This document shows positions 49,125-56,952 of a DNA stretch of 64,000 nt, piece after piece. Every line of letters starts with the position of its first letter. The first letter of the stretch is position 1. The stretch comes from an uncultured Candidatus Saccharibacteria bacterium (GTDB taxonomy: Bacteria; Patescibacteriota; Minisyncoccia; Minisyncoccales; Staskawiczbacteraceae): the NCBI GenBank assembly GCA_964427585.1, contig CAYRVC010000002.1:41513-105512 (forward strand), written 5' to 3'. Made by a program: the position numbers and the translations under genes. A model generated the notes under the pieces. It searched no databases and was not told where the DNA came from. It saw only the letters and a program-made list of their open reading frames with translations.

Positions 49125-51260
49125 TTACTTTATATCGCTTCTTATTTTTTTAATTGATTTTTCAACTGAAAAATCTTCTCCCAATATTTCTTTCGCTTTT
49201 TCTTTTTTAAAAAGTTCTTTTATTTTGTTTTCTTCAAGTGTCCTTTGGGCTCTTGTCTCCCATTTTTTCTGGAATTCCCCTTCTAATAGGCTTTCGATTA
49301 ATGAGTTCAATTCGCCTTTTTTTGATTCCAAATCTTTTTTAGAGAAATATTTTCCGCCTATTTTTATTTTATCTGAGAAAAACGCTGGCTTCGCCTCCAT
49401 AATATCTTTTGCCTCACAGCCTGAAGAAACAAGAGCTATGACTTCTTCTTTATCAAGTATGACTTTTCCTATTTTTAATTCGCCCGTTTCATTAATTTGA
49501 CCGGCTATTTCCGGCGGGAACAAAGAATCAATCCTTGCTATGCTTCTGCTTTGTTTTTCTTTTTCAATATAATTTTTCAATTCATTTTTAAATTGTTCGG
49601 CTGTTTTCGGTTCGCTTAAAAATTCCGGCAAGTCGCGTTTTACTTCTTTCATAATATTTCTACCGCTTACGCAACCAGCTAATTCTCTTACGATTTCTGA
49701 ATTTTCTTCCCATTTTGTTTTTATCAGTGGGGGCCTGTCTCCTCTTAACCTGCCTGGTATTTCCTCTCTGGCTTCGCCTCTTTTTCTCCAAAAATAATTA
49801 AGGACTAAGTAGTTGGCTTCAGGCAAGGGCTCTTTTCGGCTTAAGCCGCTTTTTAACGCAACTATGTCGTCCAATTCTTTCTTTAATTGCGAGGCTTCAG
49901 GATTTTTTTCCCCGTCCACCTTAATTCTTTTTATAATGAACTCTGTTTTTTCTTCTTCTTTTATTTCGACAGGCTTGCCGTCTTTCTTCAATTTCCCCAT
50001 AATAAAATCGTCATAAAATTCTGCCGTCAGCCTGCTGATTTCCTCGTTTAATTTTTCCTGCATTAAATTTTTAACTTCTTCTGAGACCTCCGGCTTTTTT
50101 TCTGGTTCTTTCAGCTCCATTTCCTTTTCAGACATTAGAGGAACTTCCGGCCCTTCTTTTCTGCCTTCTATATTCCCTGTTTCCGCCACATTTTTTATCA
50201 TTTGAAGGCTAATGGCGCGGACAGCGTAATTGTCTGTTTCTTTTTTTGCTTCTTCTATAATATTATTTGAAAGACTCTCTATGGCGTATTGTTCCAGCTC
50301 GGCCTCGCTGGAAAACTGCCTTTCTTCCTCTCTCGGAAAAGGAATTTTTATTTTTCCCCAAACGGGCAATTTTATCGATTTTATTTCGTCTAAGGTCAAA
50401 CCGCTGGCCAAAAGACCGGCTGCTTCCGCCGGAGAATACATTCCCTGCCCAAGCTTATATTTCCCTTCTTCTTTATCATAGTATTCTTTTTTAAGATTTC
50501 TTTCTTCATTAAACAGAGGAAAAAGAAGCCCGTTAATTCTTTCTGTCTTGAAATCTTCGTTTTCCGCCTTTATTGCGGCCGCATTTTCGATTTTTCTTTT
50601 ATAATCTTCGTCGTTTTTGTCCTGTTCGTGCTTTTTTTTCGCCTCTTCTTCAATATTTACTCCAGCGATTTCGCCTCCCAGGTTTTTTGCATTATCAGCC
50701 AACTCCTTATATTCTTTTTTCAGTTTGTTTTCTTCCATGCCGGGAACATCCTCTTTTCTTTTTTTTCTGGCTTTTATATCAAGAATAACCTCCCTTAAAT
50801 TTTGTTCTTTTTCCAACAGCTGCCTTAAAGAATTCTGCTTTTGTAATTTTATCTTTTCTTCTATTTTCTGTTTTTCCGTTTCTCTTTCTTTTTCCAGGGA
50901 AATTTCCCTGGCCCTTAAAAGGGCGGCTTCTGACTTGGATGGCAGTTCTGTTTTAGCTTTTTCCCGTTCTTTTTTTATATCCGCCTCTTCTTTGTCCATT
51001 TCTTTTTTCTTTTCCATAGGTTTCCCTGCCTCCTCTCTTATCCTTTGTAGCTCATCCATTTCTTCAAGAGATCTATATCTGCCCGTCCTAGTAACTATTT
51101 TAATAAGGGGCTGGATCGTTGTGTCTGGCTTTGGCAGATTTAATTCTGTTTCAGACTTTAAAACCGGGTCTGTTTCAGCGGGCTTTGGTTCTTCTTCTAA
51201 GGGTATGGATTCTACCGGCCCATCGTCTTTTGATTGTTTTGATTTTTCCGGATTAGGCAT
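49125..51260 (-). CDS. Hypothetical large charged coiled-coil protein
   Basis: 711 aa; extremely K/E-rich with heptad-like repeats; no catalytic motif. Confidence 0.45.
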   Translation of the reverse strand: MPNPEKSKQSKDDGPVESIPLEEEPKPAETDPVLKSETELNLPKPDTTIQPLIKIVTRTGRYRSLEEMDELQRIREEAGKPMEKKKEMDKEEADIKKEREKAKTELPSKSEAALLRAREISLEKERETEKQKIEEKIKLQKQNSLRQLLEKEQNLREVILDIKARKKRKEDVPGMEENKLKKEYKELADNAKNLGGEIAGVNIEEEAKKKHEQDKNDEDYKRKIENAAAIKAENEDFKTERINGLLFPLFNEERNLKKEYYDKEEGKYKLGQGMYSPAEAAGLLASGLTLDEIKSIKLPVWGKIKIPFPREEERQFSSEAELEQYAIESLSNNIIEEAKKETDNYAVRAISLQMIKNVAETGNIEGRKEGPEVPLMSEKEMELKEPEKKPEVSEEVKNLMQEKLNEEISRLTAEFYDDFIMGKLKKDGKPVEIKEEEKTEFIIKRIKVDGEKNPEASQLKKELDDIVALKSGLSRKEPLPEANYLVLNYFWRKRGEAREEIPGRLRGDRPPLIKTKWEENSEIVRELAGCVSGRNIMKEVKRDLPEFLSEPKTAEQFKNELKNYIEKEKQSRSIARIDSLFPPEIAGQINETGELKIGKVILDKEEVIALVSSGCEAKDIMEAKPAFFSDKIKIGGKYFSKKDLESKKGELNSLIESLLEGEFQKKWETRAQRTLEENKIKELFKKEKAKEILGEDFSVEKSIKKIRSDIK

Positions 51261-51361
51261 TTTTTTAGAACTAAAATATTTATTAATTTATTTTATCACT
51301 TAAAGAATAAAACATCAATTTTTTGACAAAACTGAATATGTCTGATAAGATGTAAAATAAT

Positions 51362-51628
51362 ATGGCAATAACAAAATCGGCTAAAAAAGCCTGGCGCCAA
51401 AATTTAAGGCGCAGGGCCAGGAACCTTGTTTACAAAACAAGAATAAAAAAAACTTTAAAAGAAGTGATTTCTTTGGTTGAAGAAAAAAAAATAGAGGAAG
51501 CAAAAAAGCTTCTGCCCCAGGTTTTTAAAATTTTAGACAAATCAGCCAAAGTTGGCATTATTAAAAAGAATACCGCTTCACGAAAAAAGTCCAGATTGTC
51601 AAAATTACTGGCTAAAATGTCAAAATAA
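51362..51628 (+). CDS. rpsT: 30S ribosomal protein S20
   Basis: 88 aa MAITKSAKKAWRQNLRRRARN.. matches bS20. Confidence 0.9.
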   Translation: MAITKSAKKAWRQNLRRRARNLVYKTRIKKTLKEVISLVEEKKIEEAKKLLPQVFKILDKSAKVGIIKKNTASRKKSRLSKLLAKMSK

Positions 51629-51646
51629 TATTTTACCGTTGCAGGG

Positions 51647-53692
51647 TTATATTTCAGAAACCAGCAATTCCAATGCTGCTTCCGGTTCCAGTCTTCCTGA
51701 TTTAATATCCAAATCTGCCTGAAATATTTTCTGGTAGATTTTTTTTAATTCAGAAAAAGAAAACCGGCTGCACAAATAATATGTTTTTTTAACGACAAAC
51801 GGGTGAAGCCCGCTTTTTTTTGCTATGGCAGGATAAGGATTTTTCTTTTCAGCCAGCTCCTTGATTATCAAAAGAGTCCTGAACTGGTAAGCAATCATCG
51901 AAAGCAGCCTTAAAACGTTTTCTCCGCTTTCCAGGTGTTTATGCAAAAGAGAGATTGCCTCTTTTTTGTTTTTTGAAGCCAAGGCATCTATGGTTTTGAA
52001 TATGTCGTTTTCTATTTTCGGCTTTAAAAATAAATCCACATCGTCTTTCGTTATTTTTTTTCCGTTTTTAAAACAGGCTAATTTTTTTATTTCGTTGCTG
52101 ACATGCCACAAGTCTGAGCTGACGCGGCAAAAAAATCTTTCCAGGGCGGATTCGTCTATTTCAGCTTTAAAAATTTCGAACTCTTTTTTCAGCCAGTTTT
52201 TAAGCAAAACCCCTTTTAACAAATTGAATTCTTGGCATTTGGCGTTCTTATTTAGAAACTTGAAAAGCGGGTCCTTTTTTTCTATTTTGGAAGGCTCGTA
52301 CAGCAAAATAATAACATCTTCAGATTCCGAAAAGTCCTTCGCTTCTTTTAAAAACTTATCTCTTAAAATGTCATCCGAGAAAATATTCAAAACCACCAGC
52401 AGTTTTTTTTCACCAGAAAACAGGGAAATCTGGCTGGCTTTGTTTTTAAAATCTAAAAAAACTTGCTCCGACCCTCTGCCATCGTCTAAAAAATTGAAAA
52501 GACCAAAAGACATCCCGCTTTTATGGATTTTTTTGTAATGGTCAATTATTTCATTTAATTTCTGCCTTGACCTATATGTGTCCTCCCCGTATAAAAATAT
52601 AATCATGCTCAAATATTTAAAAAAGTAATTTTTTCTGACCTTATAGCCGTTGCAATGTTTTAAAACTCCTAAATAAGATTGAATCGTTTGATTAAAATTT
52701 TCCTTTGTTATTTTTCCATCCTTCAATTCCACTTCCCTTATTTTTAAATTTTTGATTATTCTGTTTTTGGTTTTTATCCTTAAAATTCTATAATGAGGAA
52801 ATACGACATATCCTAAAAAATCAATACCTTGATGATATTTCCTTATTATTATCTTATCTTTATGCAAAGATAATTTCAAATTATTTTTCAGAAAATTGCT
52901 TATATCTCTAATTGTCTGTCTGTAGTTTCTGCTCAAAATAGTGAAGTCGTCGCAGTAACGAATATAGTATTTTTCTTTTAGTTCATGCTTAATAAATTTA
53001 TCCAATTCGCCAAGATAAATATTTGCGAATAATTGACTTGTTATGTTTCCCAAGGGCAACCCTTTTGGAAAACTCTTTATAATCCTGATTATCAACCAAA
53101 TTACATCATCGTATTTTATTTTATTTTTGATTAAACTAATCAAAGTATCCTGGTCAATTGAATCAAAATATTTTCTAATATCGCATTTTAAAATATAACA
53201 GGTTTTTGTGTTATTTTTACTGATCTTTCCAGCAAAACAATTTAATCTGTTCACTGCCCTGTGCGTTCCTTTATCGATCCTGCAGGAATAAGAATCAAAA
53301 ATAAATGATTTATCAAAAATAGGATATAAAATTCTAAATATGGCATGATGCAAAACTCTGTCTTTCACCGTTGCCTTATGAATTTTTCTCAATTTTGGGT
53401 CTTTAATGAAAAAAGAGGTATAATTTGAATGTCGGTAGGTTTTATTTTTTAATTCGTTATAAAGAAGAAAAATATTGTCTTCTAAATTATATTCAAATTC
53501 CTGGACATCTGGCTTTTTCCTTTTTCCCTTTTTAAATTCGTTCCAGGCAAAGAATAAATTTTCAAGGGATATTATTCTTTCAAAAATATCATGGCTTTTA
53601 ATACCCCCCCCCCCAGACCTTTGGCAATTTTGATGTTCCTGTTTTGCATAAGATTTGCGAATTCTATAAAAAAATTTATCTGTTGTTGCCAA
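51647..53692 (-). CDS. DGR-type reverse transcriptase fused in-frame to DNA polymerase III delta subunit (HolA)
   Basis: aa ~35-360: RT motifs incl. SYSCRIDKGTHRAV, YILKCDIRKYFDSI, DGR-hallmark PLGNITSQLFANIYL (SQ instead of SP), YCDD, GIDFLGY, SYLGVLKHCNGY; aa 363-681: MIIFLYGEDTY..GEKKLLVVLN..GENVLRLLSMIAYQFR..LDIKSGRLEPEAALELLV matches HolA end-to-end; no stop codon between (verified on nucleotides 52600-52660). Confidence 0.8.
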   Translation of the reverse strand: MATTDKFFYRIRKSYAKQEHQNCQRSGGGGIKSHDIFERIISLENLFFAWNEFKKGKRKKPDVQEFEYNLEDNIFLLYNELKNKTYRHSNYTSFFIKDPKLRKIHKATVKDRVLHHAIFRILYPIFDKSFIFDSYSCRIDKGTHRAVNRLNCFAGKISKNNTKTCYILKCDIRKYFDSIDQDTLISLIKNKIKYDDVIWLIIRIIKSFPKGLPLGNITSQLFANIYLGELDKFIKHELKEKYYIRYCDDFTILSRNYRQTIRDISNFLKNNLKLSLHKDKIIIRKYHQGIDFLGYVVFPHYRILRIKTKNRIIKNLKIREVELKDGKITKENFNQTIQSYLGVLKHCNGYKVRKNYFFKYLSMIIFLYGEDTYRSRQKLNEIIDHYKKIHKSGMSFGLFNFLDDGRGSEQVFLDFKNKASQISLFSGEKKLLVVLNIFSDDILRDKFLKEAKDFSESEDVIILLYEPSKIEKKDPLFKFLNKNAKCQEFNLLKGVLLKNWLKKEFEIFKAEIDESALERFFCRVSSDLWHVSNEIKKLACFKNGKKITKDDVDLFLKPKIENDIFKTIDALASKNKKEAISLLHKHLESGENVLRLLSMIAYQFRTLLIIKELAEKKNPYPAIAKKSGLHPFVVKKTYYLCSRFSFSELKKIYQKIFQADLDIKSGRLEPEAALELLVSEI

Positions 53693-53964
53693 AAATTCCT
53701 AAGAAAGACAGGTTTGGAATTTTTGCGAGGATAGAAACTTTTTGTTTAGATATATTAATTTTGACAATTGAATCTGCTCTGCAAACAAAAAATAACAAAC
53801 TTCAACTATTAAATTTAACAAGAATAAAAATTGAGACCTTGAAAAAATTGATAAGAATCGCTAACGAATTAAAAATTATTGAGGATAAAAAATACATAGA
53901 GTTGGAATTTGATTTGCAGGAAATATCTAAAATGATTAATGGCTGGATAAAATACTTAATATAA
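53644..53964 (+). CDS. avd: Avd-like accessory variability determinant (four-helix-bundle / 23S rRNA-IVS protein family)
   Basis: 106 aa; LPKIPKKDRFGIFARIE..ILTIESA and ..ISKMINGWIKYL match IVS41/Avd pattern (FPK.EKyGL.sQl.R...Si..NIAEG ... GWIk); divergent from and overlapping RT 5' end by 49 nt. Confidence 0.65.
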   Translation: MHKICEFYKKIYLLLPKIPKKDRFGIFARIETFCLDILILTIESALQTKNNKLQLLNLTRIKIETLKKLIRIANELKIIEDKKYIELEFDLQEISKMINGWIKYLI

Positions 53965-53994
53965 AAGGAGCTTTTAAAAAGCTCCTTTTATTGC

Positions 53995-54115
53995 GGAAAC
54001 TTCGGAGCGGGACCGCAAATAGTCGTTGTGATTGTTGGCGTAGTTCCAATTCACCTTGAACTTGCCGTCATTCCAGTTCGCGTTCGGCACGTAGCCATCG
54101 GAATTGCGGGAACCG
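53995..54115 (-). repeat. DGR template repeat (TR), sense on minus strand, AAC-rich
   Basis: 121-nt repeat 88% identical to VR; minus-strand reading GSRNSDGYVPNANWNDGKFKVNWNYANNHNDYLRSRSEVS with 8 AAC/AAT Asn codons. Confidence 0.7.
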
Positions 54116-54298
54116 TTATTTATTTAATTCCATCTATTTCACCGAAAGTTTTTTTTAAAAAACAATCTGTGTTATCTGGCGGTCGCCAGCAGTACTTCGA
54201 ACCAAATGTTCGTTAGAATTAAACAAGCAGTTTCCTAAAAAAGGCAAACCGACATCGAATTAAAAATTCGACCGGCTGTATTAGCCAAAGTTATTATA

Positions 54299-54344
54299 CA
54301 TAAAAAAAGAGCTCTTTTGCAACATCTTGTCGCAAAAGAGCTTT
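54299..54344 (-). terminator. Rho-independent terminator of DGR target gene
   Basis: Minus-strand hairpin AAGCTCTTTTGC-loop-GCAAAAGAGCTC followed by TTTTTTT. Confidence 0.6.
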
Positions 54345-54352
54345 ACTGACGA

Positions 54353-54371
54353 GTCCCGCCGCGGGCGGGAC
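54353..54371 (-). promoter_or_regulatory. GC-rich hairpin 34 nt downstream of VR (GTCCCGCC-GCG-GGCGGGAC)
   Basis: 8-bp all-GC stem in AT-rich context; position equivalent to the hairpin/cruciform described downstream of VR in characterised DGRs. Confidence 0.45.
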
Positions 54372-54401
54372 AGGAAAAAAGGAAAAAGGTACAAGGTTAA
54401 G

Positions 54402-55100
54402 TTAGGAAACTACGGAGCGGGACCGCAAATCGTCGTAGTGATTGCTGGCGTAGTTCCAAGAAACCCTGAACCTGCCGTCATCCCAGAACGCGCTCGGCAC
54501 GTCGCCATCGGAATTGCGGGAACCGGCGCAAAGCGTCCAATTTTTCATATCAAGATGTTCACCTGTTTCCTTGAAAAACTTGAGCTCGTAAAGCTCGCGC
54601 TCTTCAAGGGTAATTTCTGGTGTTTCTCTCTGCCTTAGAAAATCAGCAGAACGATTTTTGTTTTCCTCATCTGCCTCCACGCGGTCTCGCGCCCAAATGG
54701 CATAGTGGCCGTTTTCGCCAGTGCGGTCGGATTTAATAACTTCGTCCAAGCTCTTATCCGTATATTTCCAAGACGGAAAGAGCTCTTTGCACTTGTCAAA
54801 CAAACGCTGGGGAGTCATCCCCTGGGCAACCACCAGTAGGCGGTCAAAGCCGGGTTTGCTGTCGGGAATTTTAATTCCCGAAAAATCCAATTCAAGACCA
54901 AAGACCTCCTTGTAGAATTTGATCCAGTCAGCCAGTAATTTCTTACTGCTGGTCGGCTTTGCTTCGACTAGCTTCTTGCCATCGATAATCGCCTGCAAAA
55001 CATCGCTTACTTCTTTAGGGTCGCGTTTTCCATCAACTAAAAACTTGCCAACGCTCGCCCACTGTTTAAACAATGTTTCATACACATTTCCACTACTCAT
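54402..55100 (-). CDS. DGR variable (target) protein with C-terminal VR
   Basis: 232 aa; last 40 aa encoded by VR (..GSRNSDGDVPSAFWDDGRFRVSWNYASNHYDDLRSRSVVS); C-terminal W/R/S-rich signature reminiscent of CLec/FGE-type DGR targets. Confidence 0.65.
   Translation of the reverse strand: MSSGNVYETLFKQWASVGKFLVDGKRDPKEVSDVLQAIIDGKKLVEAKPTSSKKLLADWIKFYKEVFGLELDFSGIKIPDSKPGFDRLLVVAQGMTPQRLFDKCKELFPSWKYTDKSLDEVIKSDRTGENGHYAIWARDRVEADEENKNRSADFLRQRETPEITLEERELYELKFFKETGEHLDMKNWTLCAGSRNSDGDVPSAFWDDGRFRVSWNYASNHYDDLRSRSVVS
54405..54525 (-). repeat. DGR variable repeat (VR) at 3' end of target gene
   Basis: 14 mismatches to TR; 11 at positions where TR sense strand has A. Confidence 0.7.
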
Positions 55101-55256
55101 GGCGTTTCTCCTAAAAAGAACTGTTCTGCCTGCTTCTAACAGGCGGTTTTAGAAAGGAACCGCTCCTTTCTTTTACTTTTTATATTAACAAATAAAAGTC
55201 ATTTTGTCAAATTTATTTGTACATTTATTAACATTTTCTAAACTTTGTTCAAATTC

Positions 55257-55279
55257 TGTTCGAGCCCCGAGCTCGAACA
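55257..55279. repeat. REP-like hairpin copy (TGTTCGAGC-CCCGA-GCTCGAACA) downstream of transposase
   Basis: 9-bp stem, same GAGCCCCGAGCTC core. Confidence 0.55.
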
Positions 55280-55294
55280 ATTTTACAACTTTAC

Positions 55295-56029
55295 CTACTC
55301 CAAAAATAATTCTGAATATTTTGCAACATCTTTTTTGTGTTCTACCCAATCTTTTATAATTTTTTTTAACCCCTCAACTTCACCTGTCATCTCTAAAAGA
55401 AATTCTCTTTCGGTTACTGACGGAAAGTTTTCAATGCCAATGCAGTCTTGATAGCTAGACCATTTATAATTTTCTAAAAATTCAACTGTTTCGTCAACTG
55501 AATGGTTCCTTATTCCCAACTCTTTCCAACCCGGTTCAATAAGAGCAATAGGGTTTGTGAAAATATAAGATGCGGTCGCCATAAATTGATTATCGTTTTC
55601 TATTTGAATCGACCTAAATGCATCCTGAAAAACATGCCCTTTTCGCTGATATTTATCATTAAAATATCTGCCATAACCTCCTCCGACTTTTTGCATAAAT
55701 TTAGAAATACCACCATCCTTAATTTGTTTTAATAAAAGATGCAAGTGATTGGGCATAAAACAAAAAGCCAAAACTCCAACAATTTTTTCTCTTTTGTCAA
55801 TTAAAACCGACCGAGCCCCGAGGTCGATCATTTTCTCTTTTTTCTTTTCGGTTTTACGATTTCGTCTTCTGACAGATATATTTACTGGCTTTAAATTATT
55901 AAATTCATATATTGAAAAAACTCCTCGGAAATAGTCATCTATGTTCTTAAAGATTAAATTCTCATCAAGCGCTCTTATTATTATATGATAAATTCCGCCT
56001 GTATCAAATTGTTCTTTTCTGCGAGGCAT
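55295..56029 (-). mobile_element. IS200/RAYT-like HUH tyrosine transposase (Y1_Tnp family)
   Basis: Start at internal MPRRKEQFDTGGIYHIIIRALDENLIF; HUH motif FMPNHLHLLL; catalytic-Tyr region ASYIFTNP; flanked by GC-rich hairpins at 56053-56075 and 55257-55279. Confidence 0.65.
55808..55828. repeat. Degenerate REP-like hairpin copy inside transposase ORF (CGACCGAGCCCCGAGGTCG)
   Basis: Core GAGCCCCGAGGTC with one substitution; encodes IDLGARS within an apparent ~40-aa insertion. Confidence 0.4.
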
Positions 56030-56052
56030 AATAATTGTTCGAGCCCCGAGCT

Positions 56053-56075
56053 CGATCGGTTTTAATATTATAATT
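56053..56075. repeat. REP-like hairpin copy (TTGTTCGAGC-CCCGA-GCTCGATC) between mutM stop and transposase start
   Basis: Same core; imperfect outer stem. Confidence 0.5.
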
Positions 56076-56952
56076 ATTGGGGTTTTTGGCAGGAGGGGCA
56101 GAAGAAGGCGCTGCGCTGGCCTATTTTCAGCCGTTTTATTTTTTGACCGCAACGGGAGCATTTCTGGCCGGCTCTTTTATAAACCTTTCTTTCGTCATCA
56201 AAGTCTCCTTTCCGACCGTCGGGCTTCCTGTAATCCGAAAAGCTTTCACCGCCCAATTTTATCCCTAAAGTTAAAACTTTTTTGATGGCGTTATAAAGCA
56301 ATTTTAACTCTTTATCGTTTAAGTTTGAAGTGTCTTTTCCAGGATGAATTTTTGCCAACCACAGCGCCTCGCTGGAATATATGTTTCCTATGCCGGCAAT
56401 AATTTCCTGATTCATCAAGATCTGTTTTATCTTGCCTTTTTTATTTTTAAAAACTTCTTTAAATTTTTTAAAAGTGAAGTCTTTTTCCAACGGCTCTGGA
56501 CCCAGTTTTTTCAAATCTTTAGAATTTAACAGCTCTTTTGTTTTCCATAACTCAACCTTGGCAAATTTTCTCATATCAGACAAGGCCAGCATGCTGCTGT
56601 TGTCTAAAAAAAATATCAAATGCAGAAAACGGTTATAAGGATCGGCCAAGGGGCTGTTTTGAGGAGCCGTCCACCCGTTTCCATTTCTTTGCCATTTCCC
56701 GCATAAAAGATGTCCTGTCATTTTTTGGTGGACCAGCAAGGAATATCCTTTAGATAATTCCACAATTACATTTTTTGCCCTGCGCCAGGCTTTGATTATT
56801 TTTTTGCCTTTTATCTCTTTTTTGAAAGCTTTAAAATTGTTCGGCTTCTTTATTATTTTTTCCGCGTCCGTCCAAACATCAAGAAAGGTCCTGCCAAGGA
56901 CCTTTGAGTTCAAACCTTTCACCGTTGTTTCCACTTCCGGCAATTCCGGCAT
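56074..56952 (-). CDS. mutM: Formamidopyrimidine-DNA glycosylase (Fpg/Nei family)
   Basis: 292 aa; N-terminal MPELPEVE catalytic Pro2/Glu3, H2TH domain, C-terminal CxxC..CxxC zinc finger. Confidence 0.85.
   Translation of the reverse strand: MPELPEVETTVKGLNSKVLGRTFLDVWTDAEKIIKKPNNFKAFKKEIKGKKIIKAWRRAKNVIVELSKGYSLLVHQKMTGHLLCGKWQRNGNGWTAPQNSPLADPYNRFLHLIFFLDNSSMLALSDMRKFAKVELWKTKELLNSKDLKKLGPEPLEKDFTFKKFKEVFKNKKGKIKQILMNQEIIAGIGNIYSSEALWLAKIHPGKDTSNLNDKELKLLYNAIKKVLTLGIKLGGESFSDYRKPDGRKGDFDDERKVYKRAGQKCSRCGQKIKRLKIGQRSAFFCPSCQKPQ

Follow-up and report, generated by a model that had tools for sequence, protein, structure and literature searches.

Diversity-generating retroelements (DGRs) of the Candidate Phyla Radiation (CPR) were reportedly first surveyed by Paul et al. 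in 2017. In the searched sections of two further studies, a CPR-specific 'B3' architecture is defined by how the accessory gene avd and the template repeat (TR) are ordered and oriented (Wu et al. 2018, PMC5758913), DGR clade 2 is found in Patescibacteria alone (Roux et al. 2021, PMC8144416), and CPR DGRs are described as having multiple substitutions at positions other than adenine and targets without recognisable transmembrane or other conserved domains (PMC5758913, PMC8144416). We consider here a locus in a 64,000-nt stretch of DNA from Candidatus Staskawiczbacteria (hereafter the window, to which all positions refer), which is very probably a complete chromosomal DGR of the CPR-specific type, idle in this strain and, from what its sequence suggests, switchable by slippage. 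Its layout appears to be that of 'B3' and clade 2, as far as those sections describe them: the host group is shared, as is the combination of avd, TR and reverse transcriptase (RT) gene with no other accessory gene. We saw no essential difference, and the layout of the window is common to the 35 loci, out of 79 collected from species-representative genomes, that have the cassette next to the target gene. As layout, host, non-adenine substitutions and domainless targets all match, the locus is a further example of a known DGR type. A poly-G tract in the RT gene, a leader 5' of the TR and a read-through of the RT gene are not mentioned in the searched parts of PMC5758913 and PMC8144416, and no published link between DGRs and homopolymer tracts was found in the literature covered, which did not include Paul et al. 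2017.

The DGR of Bordetella phage BPP-1 (mtd, avd, TR, brt) provides the mechanistic paradigm. With it, the locus shares the RT family (the best match of the RT in the PDB is 8ub7_A, at 1.6e-43 and aligned from query residue 32, which we take to be the Bordetella phage bRT, group II intron RTs being found at about 1e-19), the Avd family, an adenine-specific mutagenesis pattern and a variable repeat (VR) with a GC-rich element at its 3' end and a GC hairpin after it. However, the BPP-1 element is phage-borne whereas that of the window is chromosomal, avd is here inverted and placed between the TR and the RT gene, and the target is not a tail fibre but a small protein with no evident signal peptide. 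Combining the anatomy of the locus with the Bordetella phage paradigm, we propose that a dedicated promoter would direct the synthesis of a short non-coding RNA composed of a 177-nt leader, the 121-nt TR and a terminator hairpin. The RT, together with the Avd encoded on the opposite strand, would copy the TR into cDNA while misincorporating opposite template adenines, and this cDNA would replace the VR, which encodes the last 40 residues of a 232-aa target; these residues would constitute the ligand-binding face of a C-type-lectin fold.

A repeat search of the window returned a single family of 121-nt direct repeats, at 53995-54115 and 54405-54525, with 88% identity, both of which are read on the minus strand. 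The first copy is the TR, according to the repeat search, the alignment and the comparison with 34 related TRs; it belongs to no listed open reading frame (ORF) on its sense (minus) strand and overlaps only a plus-strand ORF of 62 aa without any family. The second copy, the VR in the repeat search and alignment, makes up the final 40 codons of the minus-strand target ORF 54402..55100 and ends 3 nt short of its stop codon. No third copy of the TR/VR was found by blastn in the 64-kb window. At the 14 mismatches between the two repeats, the TR base (minus strand) is A in 11 cases, T in two and G in one; given 31 A among the 121 bases of the TR, the hypergeometric probability that 11 or more of the 14 fall at A is 1.4e-5. 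From TR to VR, the codon changes are AAC to AGC (twice), AAC to TTC, AAT to GAT, AAG to AGG (twice), AAT to TCT and AAC to TAC. The TR contains nine AAY and two AAG codons, and 30 of its 31 adenines occupy codon positions 1 or 2. A previous sequence-only reading of the window had described this repeat pair, its place at the end of the gene, the 11 of 14 mismatches at TR adenines and the Asn and Lys codon changes, all of which we recovered, and had interpreted the pair as the TR and VR of a DGR; this interpretation is supported by the RT, the Avd and the GC hairpin 3' of the VR, all adjacent and none of them cited in that reading.

The GC-rich 14-mer GCGGTCCCGCTCCG is the same in both repeats. 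It had been proposed as an identical 3' end resembling the initiation of mutagenic homing (IMH) sequence; the identity holds but the position does not, because an A-type mismatch at TR position 114 (GAA to GTA) lies 3' of the 14-mer and the TR/VR identity extends to position 121, so that GCGGTCCCGCTCCG is inside the copied stretch and is not its 3' limit. Beyond position 121 the repeats diverge, and a GC-rich hairpin, GTCCCGCC-CGC-GGCGGGAC (54353..54371, minus strand, read from the sequence), is present after the VR only, 30 nt past the target stop, where DGRs have a hairpin/cruciform after the IMH. Relatives without the cassette (L001 and L105) also have this hairpin, with a change in the loop. 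The three mismatches that are not at adenines had been taken as a sign of some age or drift, rightly so for two of them: at TR positions 23 and 95 the window has T, the VR has G at both, and A is found in 32 and 30 of the 34 related TRs, respectively. The simplest history would be a change from AAY to GAY by adenine mutagenesis, then an A to T change in the TR that was never copied to the VR; as 30-32 of the 34 related TRs carry A at these positions, the A to T changes would post-date the last homing. The third is a silent wobble difference.

The target gene (54402..55100, minus strand, 232 aa) has an N-terminal helical part followed by a C-type-lectin-like domain. Its product is recorded as a hypothetical protein in a Candidatus Staskawiczbacteria metagenome-assembled genome, and profile searches assigned it to no Pfam or NCBIfam family; it has 393 homologs, of which those that are named are nearly all from CPR/Patescibacteria. 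In the alignment of this family, hypervariable columns are confined to the last 40 residues, in a conserved scaffold (CxGSRxSDGxVPxAxWxxxxFxVxWxxxxxxxxxLRSRSVVS). A structural model, which the sequence-only reading had suggested making, predicts a C-type-lectin fold for the C-terminus, like those of TvpA, Mtd and TaqVP, with the variable residues on this fold and a distinct three-helix region at the N-terminus. A Foldseek search found nothing, and sequence identity between the target and the solved variable proteins (TvpA 2y3c, TaqVP 5vf4, Mtd 1yu0 and the FGE-type 1y4j) is 9-15%. The gene is preceded by a promoter-like site (TTGACA-17-TAATAT, with TG; 55182..55210, minus strand), a pattern match with 10 of 12 positions in a consensus scan, and followed by a predicted intrinsic terminator (54310..54342, minus strand), consisting of a 15-bp stem and a T run.

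The gene avd (53644..53964) is on the plus strand, opposite to the TR, the RT gene and the target, and matches PF22296 (bAvd) at 1.6e-16 with 61.2 bits for a cut-off of 40. The RT gene (52607..53692, minus strand) matches RVT_1 above the cut-off, is open from a TTG at 53692 and has no stop codon of its own; its ORF is intact over 362 codons and all motifs are present (LGNITSQ and YCDD; LGNITSQLFANIY, LPLGNITSQLFANIYL and RYCDDF), in agreement with motif 4 ([ILV]GxxxSQ) and the catalytic YxDD that mark RTs of the DGR clade. The RT has 7274 homologs, typically of 340-360 aa. The order target, TR, inverted avd, RT is found in all 31 related cassettes in which avd was detected. The ancestral ATG of the RT gene, at 53649-53647, is the reverse complement of codon 2 of avd. 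The start of avd (TTG CAT...) and this ancestral start (ATG CAA...) form a head-to-head overlap of 6 nt (53644-53649), and each promoter must therefore lie inside the other gene. The RT gene continues in frame, with no stop in between (junction 52595-52625), into a full-length holA encoding the delta subunit of DNA polymerase III (51647..52606, minus strand; TIGR01128 at 2.6e-61 over 1-316 of 316).

The region between the target gene and the TR holds the elements of a putative TR RNA. A promoter-like site, TTGCAA-18-TATAAT (54293..54322, minus strand; 10 of 12 matches in the consensus scan), has a -10 box (TAtAAT) that is conserved across the alignment of the 35 loci, and just past it begins a segment of about 180-220 nt, 5' of the TR, that is conserved in these loci in both sequence and structure. 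In the window this segment corresponds to a 177-nt structured leader directly 5' of the TR (54116..54292, minus strand), with five covarying helices and the single-stranded motif GGAAACUGC. RNAalifold predicted 22 pairs, and compensatory changes are seen in 20. On the MAFFT alignment it missed both helices of the first leader domain, which were added by eye and tested by pair counting. Over the 30 named pairs of the five helices, 94% of the cells are paired, as compared with 33-51% when the partners are slid, and 188 cells show double changes, as compared with 52 in shuffles. A covariance model built for the leader (R1) gave 48 matches in 789 kb, exactly one per cassette and none in the loci without a cassette, and every match with a mapped TR lies directly 5' of that TR; the leader of the window scores 141 bits, in the middle of the range of the family. 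Rfam contained no match for the leader, and a search of 51000-56500 at E values up to 1 gave only chance matches of miRNA/sRNA type.

At the other end of the TR, a perfect A-tract/U-tract hairpin (53963..53989), palindromic on both strands, stands between the 3' ends of the TR and of avd and belongs to the minimum free energy fold (z = -4.25). Nearly all relatives have a hairpin of unrelated sequence at the same place after the TR, and the one in the window is probably a bidirectional terminator that ends the TR RNA. The TR RNA thus appears to form a discrete unit, about 330 nt long, whose scaffold is 5' of the template. The leader motif GGAAACUGC can also pair with the 3' end of the TR, GAAGUUUCC (82% of cells, as compared with 25-54% for slid partners), and the closing pair covaries (AU in 11 and GC in 10). 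A G.A opposition is conserved at TR position 114 and is replaced by an A-U pair in four lineages. Support for this long-range pairing is moderate. In BPP-1, the essential RNA spacer is 3' of the TR. The arrangement of the window would be the reverse, with the conserved RNA 5' of the TR, since the TR RNA appears to end at the terminator directly after the TR. As a speculation, a fully paired terminal hairpin would also allow snap-back priming.

Evidence that elements of this kind diversify their targets comes from the relatives. In most of the 35 related loci, at least 90% of the TR/VR mismatches are at A. In a sister lineage represented by assemblies from 20 metagenomes (L107-L126), the 3.3-kb locus shows hardly any variation and the TR none, whereas the VR occurs as 13 alleles, with 29 of the 35 variable VR columns at TR adenines, which is the pattern that the sequence-only reading had proposed to look for. 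From these sequences, mutagenic homing is judged to be ongoing in that lineage. The syntenic relatives L001-L006 have about 150 nt between target and holA, without TR, avd or RT, and have retained the target, the IMH-like sequence at its end and the GC hairpin. The syntenic order in L001-L006 and L105 is Fpg, Y1 transposase, target, holA, S20. The VRs of these cassette-less genomes nevertheless differ strongly even between close relatives, with 24 differences in 84 nt as against 16 in the other 600 nt, a divergence that implies either a cassette elsewhere in the genome or a past loss.

The RT gene carries, on the minus strand at 53604..53614, a homopolymer of 11 G (G11) that begins 35 nt past the ancestral start and encodes GGGG before the RT fold. 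It is the sole run of at least eight G or C in the 64 kb, for an expected number of runs of at least 11 of 0.0025, and a tract of G7 to G14 is found at the same place in 28 of the 35 related cassettes, 27-35 nt past the ATG and directly ahead of the point where the alignment to the solved RT begins. RT proteins, as called, typically start with M[HNQ]QR.IK....GGG. The lengths of the tract are not multiples of three. In the window, the ATG at 53649-53647 encodes MQNRNIKIAKGLGGG, homologous to the in-frame N-termini of three relatives (L008, L011 and L022), and at G11 this ATG falls out of frame, which a tract of G9 or G12 would correct. The only in-frame start upstream at G11 is the TTG at 53692, 78 nt upstream of the tract. 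Among 29 species-level representatives (the window counted in the set), 11 have no in-frame ATG, GTG or TTG upstream of the tract, and in these 11 loci an ATG in another frame is found 24-44 nt upstream.

The tract also varies between closely related sequences. A second assembly of the strain (GCA_016181665.1, hereafter L098), 99.95% identical over 7.6 kb, has G7TGG in place of G11. Of the four differences between the window and L098, three cluster within 45 nt at or just after the tract (53570-53614; L098:4987-5030), which may reflect local hypermutation or sequencing error. A pattern scan of metagenomes yielded 10 loci, six of them unrelated chance matches and four informative (L090, L091, L095 and L097), and two contigs without any substitution in 2.78 kb have G10 and G11, respectively. 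Apart from the tract, L090 and L095 differ only in an indel of 4 nt, TTTC (L090:1148), located some 200 nt downstream of the RT gene. In the 20-sample sister lineage, the tract is G9 in 14 samples, out of frame, with the RT called at 443 aa from a downstream start, and in frame as G7 in four (465 aa) and as G10 in two (466 aa); exactly one codon thus separates G7 from G10, and the flanks are otherwise invariant. Two samples (L124 with G7 and L126 with G9) have the same VR allele and different tract lengths, and across the 20 samples no clear correlation was found between VR diversity and the state of the tract.

Two other roles for the tract or its surroundings were considered and rejected. 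The tract is not retained as a Shine-Dalgarno mimic, as no canonical in-frame start codon follows it, and a start of the RT downstream of the tract is not retained either, as the segment HNIFEKIISLENL keeps its protein sequence while its codons change synonymously (TCT and AGT for Ser); this segment aligns to residues 4 onwards of the solved RT.

The tract has much in common with the poly-G contingency loci of Campylobacter, Neisseria and Haemophilus, namely a run of G7 to G14 a few codons past the start, length differences between otherwise identical strains that are not multiples of three, and the coexistence of in-frame and out-of-frame alleles. Those loci gate genes for surface structures, whereas the tract considered here is in the gene of a mutagenic RT in a CPR host, and its putative switching, suggested by sequence comparison, might also occur by slippage at the RNA level. 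Taken together, these observations suggest that the tract gates translation of the RT, by phase variation of the DNA or by transcriptional slippage, and, the tract being hypermutable, slippage could probably turn the RT on again. Our fuller proposal is a tentative one, to which we give slightly less than an even chance: in this clade, a hypermutable run of G some 10 codons after the start would gate the RT, which would be out of frame in most cells and switched on in a minority by slippage of DNA or RNA. The element would then be a phase-variable, self-limiting and targeted mutator, and its TR would be embedded in an uncatalogued structured RNA with a 5' scaffold, for protein binding or priming, that pairs with the 3' end of the template.

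For the tract alone, a competing explanation is that the different lengths are errors of sequencing or assembly, or that the tract is a tolerated Gly linker, with RT expression independent of its length, for example through other start codons; we regard this as less likely than not, though far from remote. Assemblies do tend to break or to have N gaps at or beside the tract (L099, L100, L102, L041 and L078), the G7TGG of L098 may itself be an error, and in the window some start codon exists upstream of the tract in each frame (TTG at -78, ATG at -35 and TTG at -13). Against it, only three lengths (7, 9 and 10) are found in 20 independent assemblies of a single lineage, and the two that restore the frame of the ATG are exactly 3 nt apart. 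The 11 representatives with no in-frame upstream start and an ATG in another frame also speak against it, and the exclusive use of GGG codons in loci of 27-50% GC, in a clade where RT identity is about 60%, points to selection on the homopolymer itself.

As for the state of the element in the window, the copy appears to be idle at the level of the consensus, because the VR predates the two A to T changes of the TR, because one VR allele is found in four datasets and because G11 puts the ATG out of frame. The four datasets are the window, L098 and two Logan contigs from other runs (L099 and L100), in which VR and TR are the same. A search of the protein collection found no VR variant of the target protein on record between 78% and 100% identity. 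The syntenic relatives L001-L006, which have the target but no TR, avd or RT beside it, point in the same direction. The sequence-only reading had called the element active-looking: this stands for the sister lineage, with its 13 VR alleles and invariant TR, but is weak for the strain of the window, with its single VR allele and its RT ATG out of frame.

Several points weigh against our view of a complete, idle and switchable element. The match of avd to NF033474 (DivGenRetAVD), at 3.6e-16 and 59 bits, is under the cut-off of 80; the lack of a stop codon in the RT gene is open to being read as decay; and the in-frame TTG at 53692 may allow translation of the RT even at G11. A short-read assembly can misjudge the length of a run of 10-11 G by one, and the VR and the tract of the window strain were judged from the assembly consensus. 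Finally, look-ups of contigs by exact protein return identical VRs only, so that it is the protein collection search that carries the result on VR variants.

Some of the same observations would fit a decaying relic, in which the TR/VR likeness and the ORFs survive while the element is defunct in this lineage. The ancestral ATG is out of frame, the RT gene has lost its stop codon and reads through into holA, two TR substitutions never reached the VR, the VR is a single allele across the four datasets, and the cassette is missing between target and holA in syntenic relatives, through loss or because they never had it. We nevertheless consider this explanation improbable. The RT ORF, with its 362 codons and all its motifs, and avd are both intact, and the leader RNA, at 141 bits, scores in mid-range for its family. 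Being out of frame does not mean being dead, because most alleles (14 of 20) are out of frame in a lineage whose VR is demonstrably being diversified. The read-through, for its part, recurs in other lineages, the active one included: the RT-holA fusion, seen also in L098, is independently present in L007 (3560-3610), and the 20-sample lineage has an RT fused to RuvX (L107:90-1421). In L008, the RT stop overlaps the ATG of holA, and the window differs by one nucleotide near T6/A6 runs. Directly after holA, L007 has a tandem array of the 7-nt unit ATATAGA (L007:4547-4647).

A plain segmental duplication of the gene's 3' end, randomly diverged and without any retroelement, is refuted and has virtually no chance of being right: the three of 14 mismatches outside adenines are in its favour, but it would have to account for the adenine bias (P=1.4e-5), for an RT and an Avd within 300 nt, for a non-coding copy that keeps its adenines out of codon position 3 and has a conserved RNA attached to it, and for the same pair at 35 other loci, most of them with at least 90% of A-type mismatches.

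Directly upstream of the target gene, in the window as in all syntenic genomes, is an ORF for an IS200-like/REP-associated tyrosine transposase (55295-56161, minus strand; PF01797, NF047646). This gene is flanked by copies of the GC-rich palindrome TGTTCGAGCCCCGAGCTCGAACA, at 55257-55285, 55808-55836 and 56036-56064.

Considered as a DGR, the locus is one more CPR example among the very many already catalogued, and its interest is raised by two clade-wide features for which we found no description: the RT gene's hypermutable tract and the structured leader of the TR RNA. If the gating proposed here is true, a contingency tract would offer cells a simple means of turning on and off, heritably and reversibly, a retroelement that rewrites their own genes, and it would explain why many DGRs look 'inactive' in surveys of metagenomes. 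The leader RNA bears on the RNA features that direct the priming of cDNA, beyond the single model of the Bordetella phage, and an RNA of about 330 nt with two small proteins would make a compact system for biochemistry or engineering.

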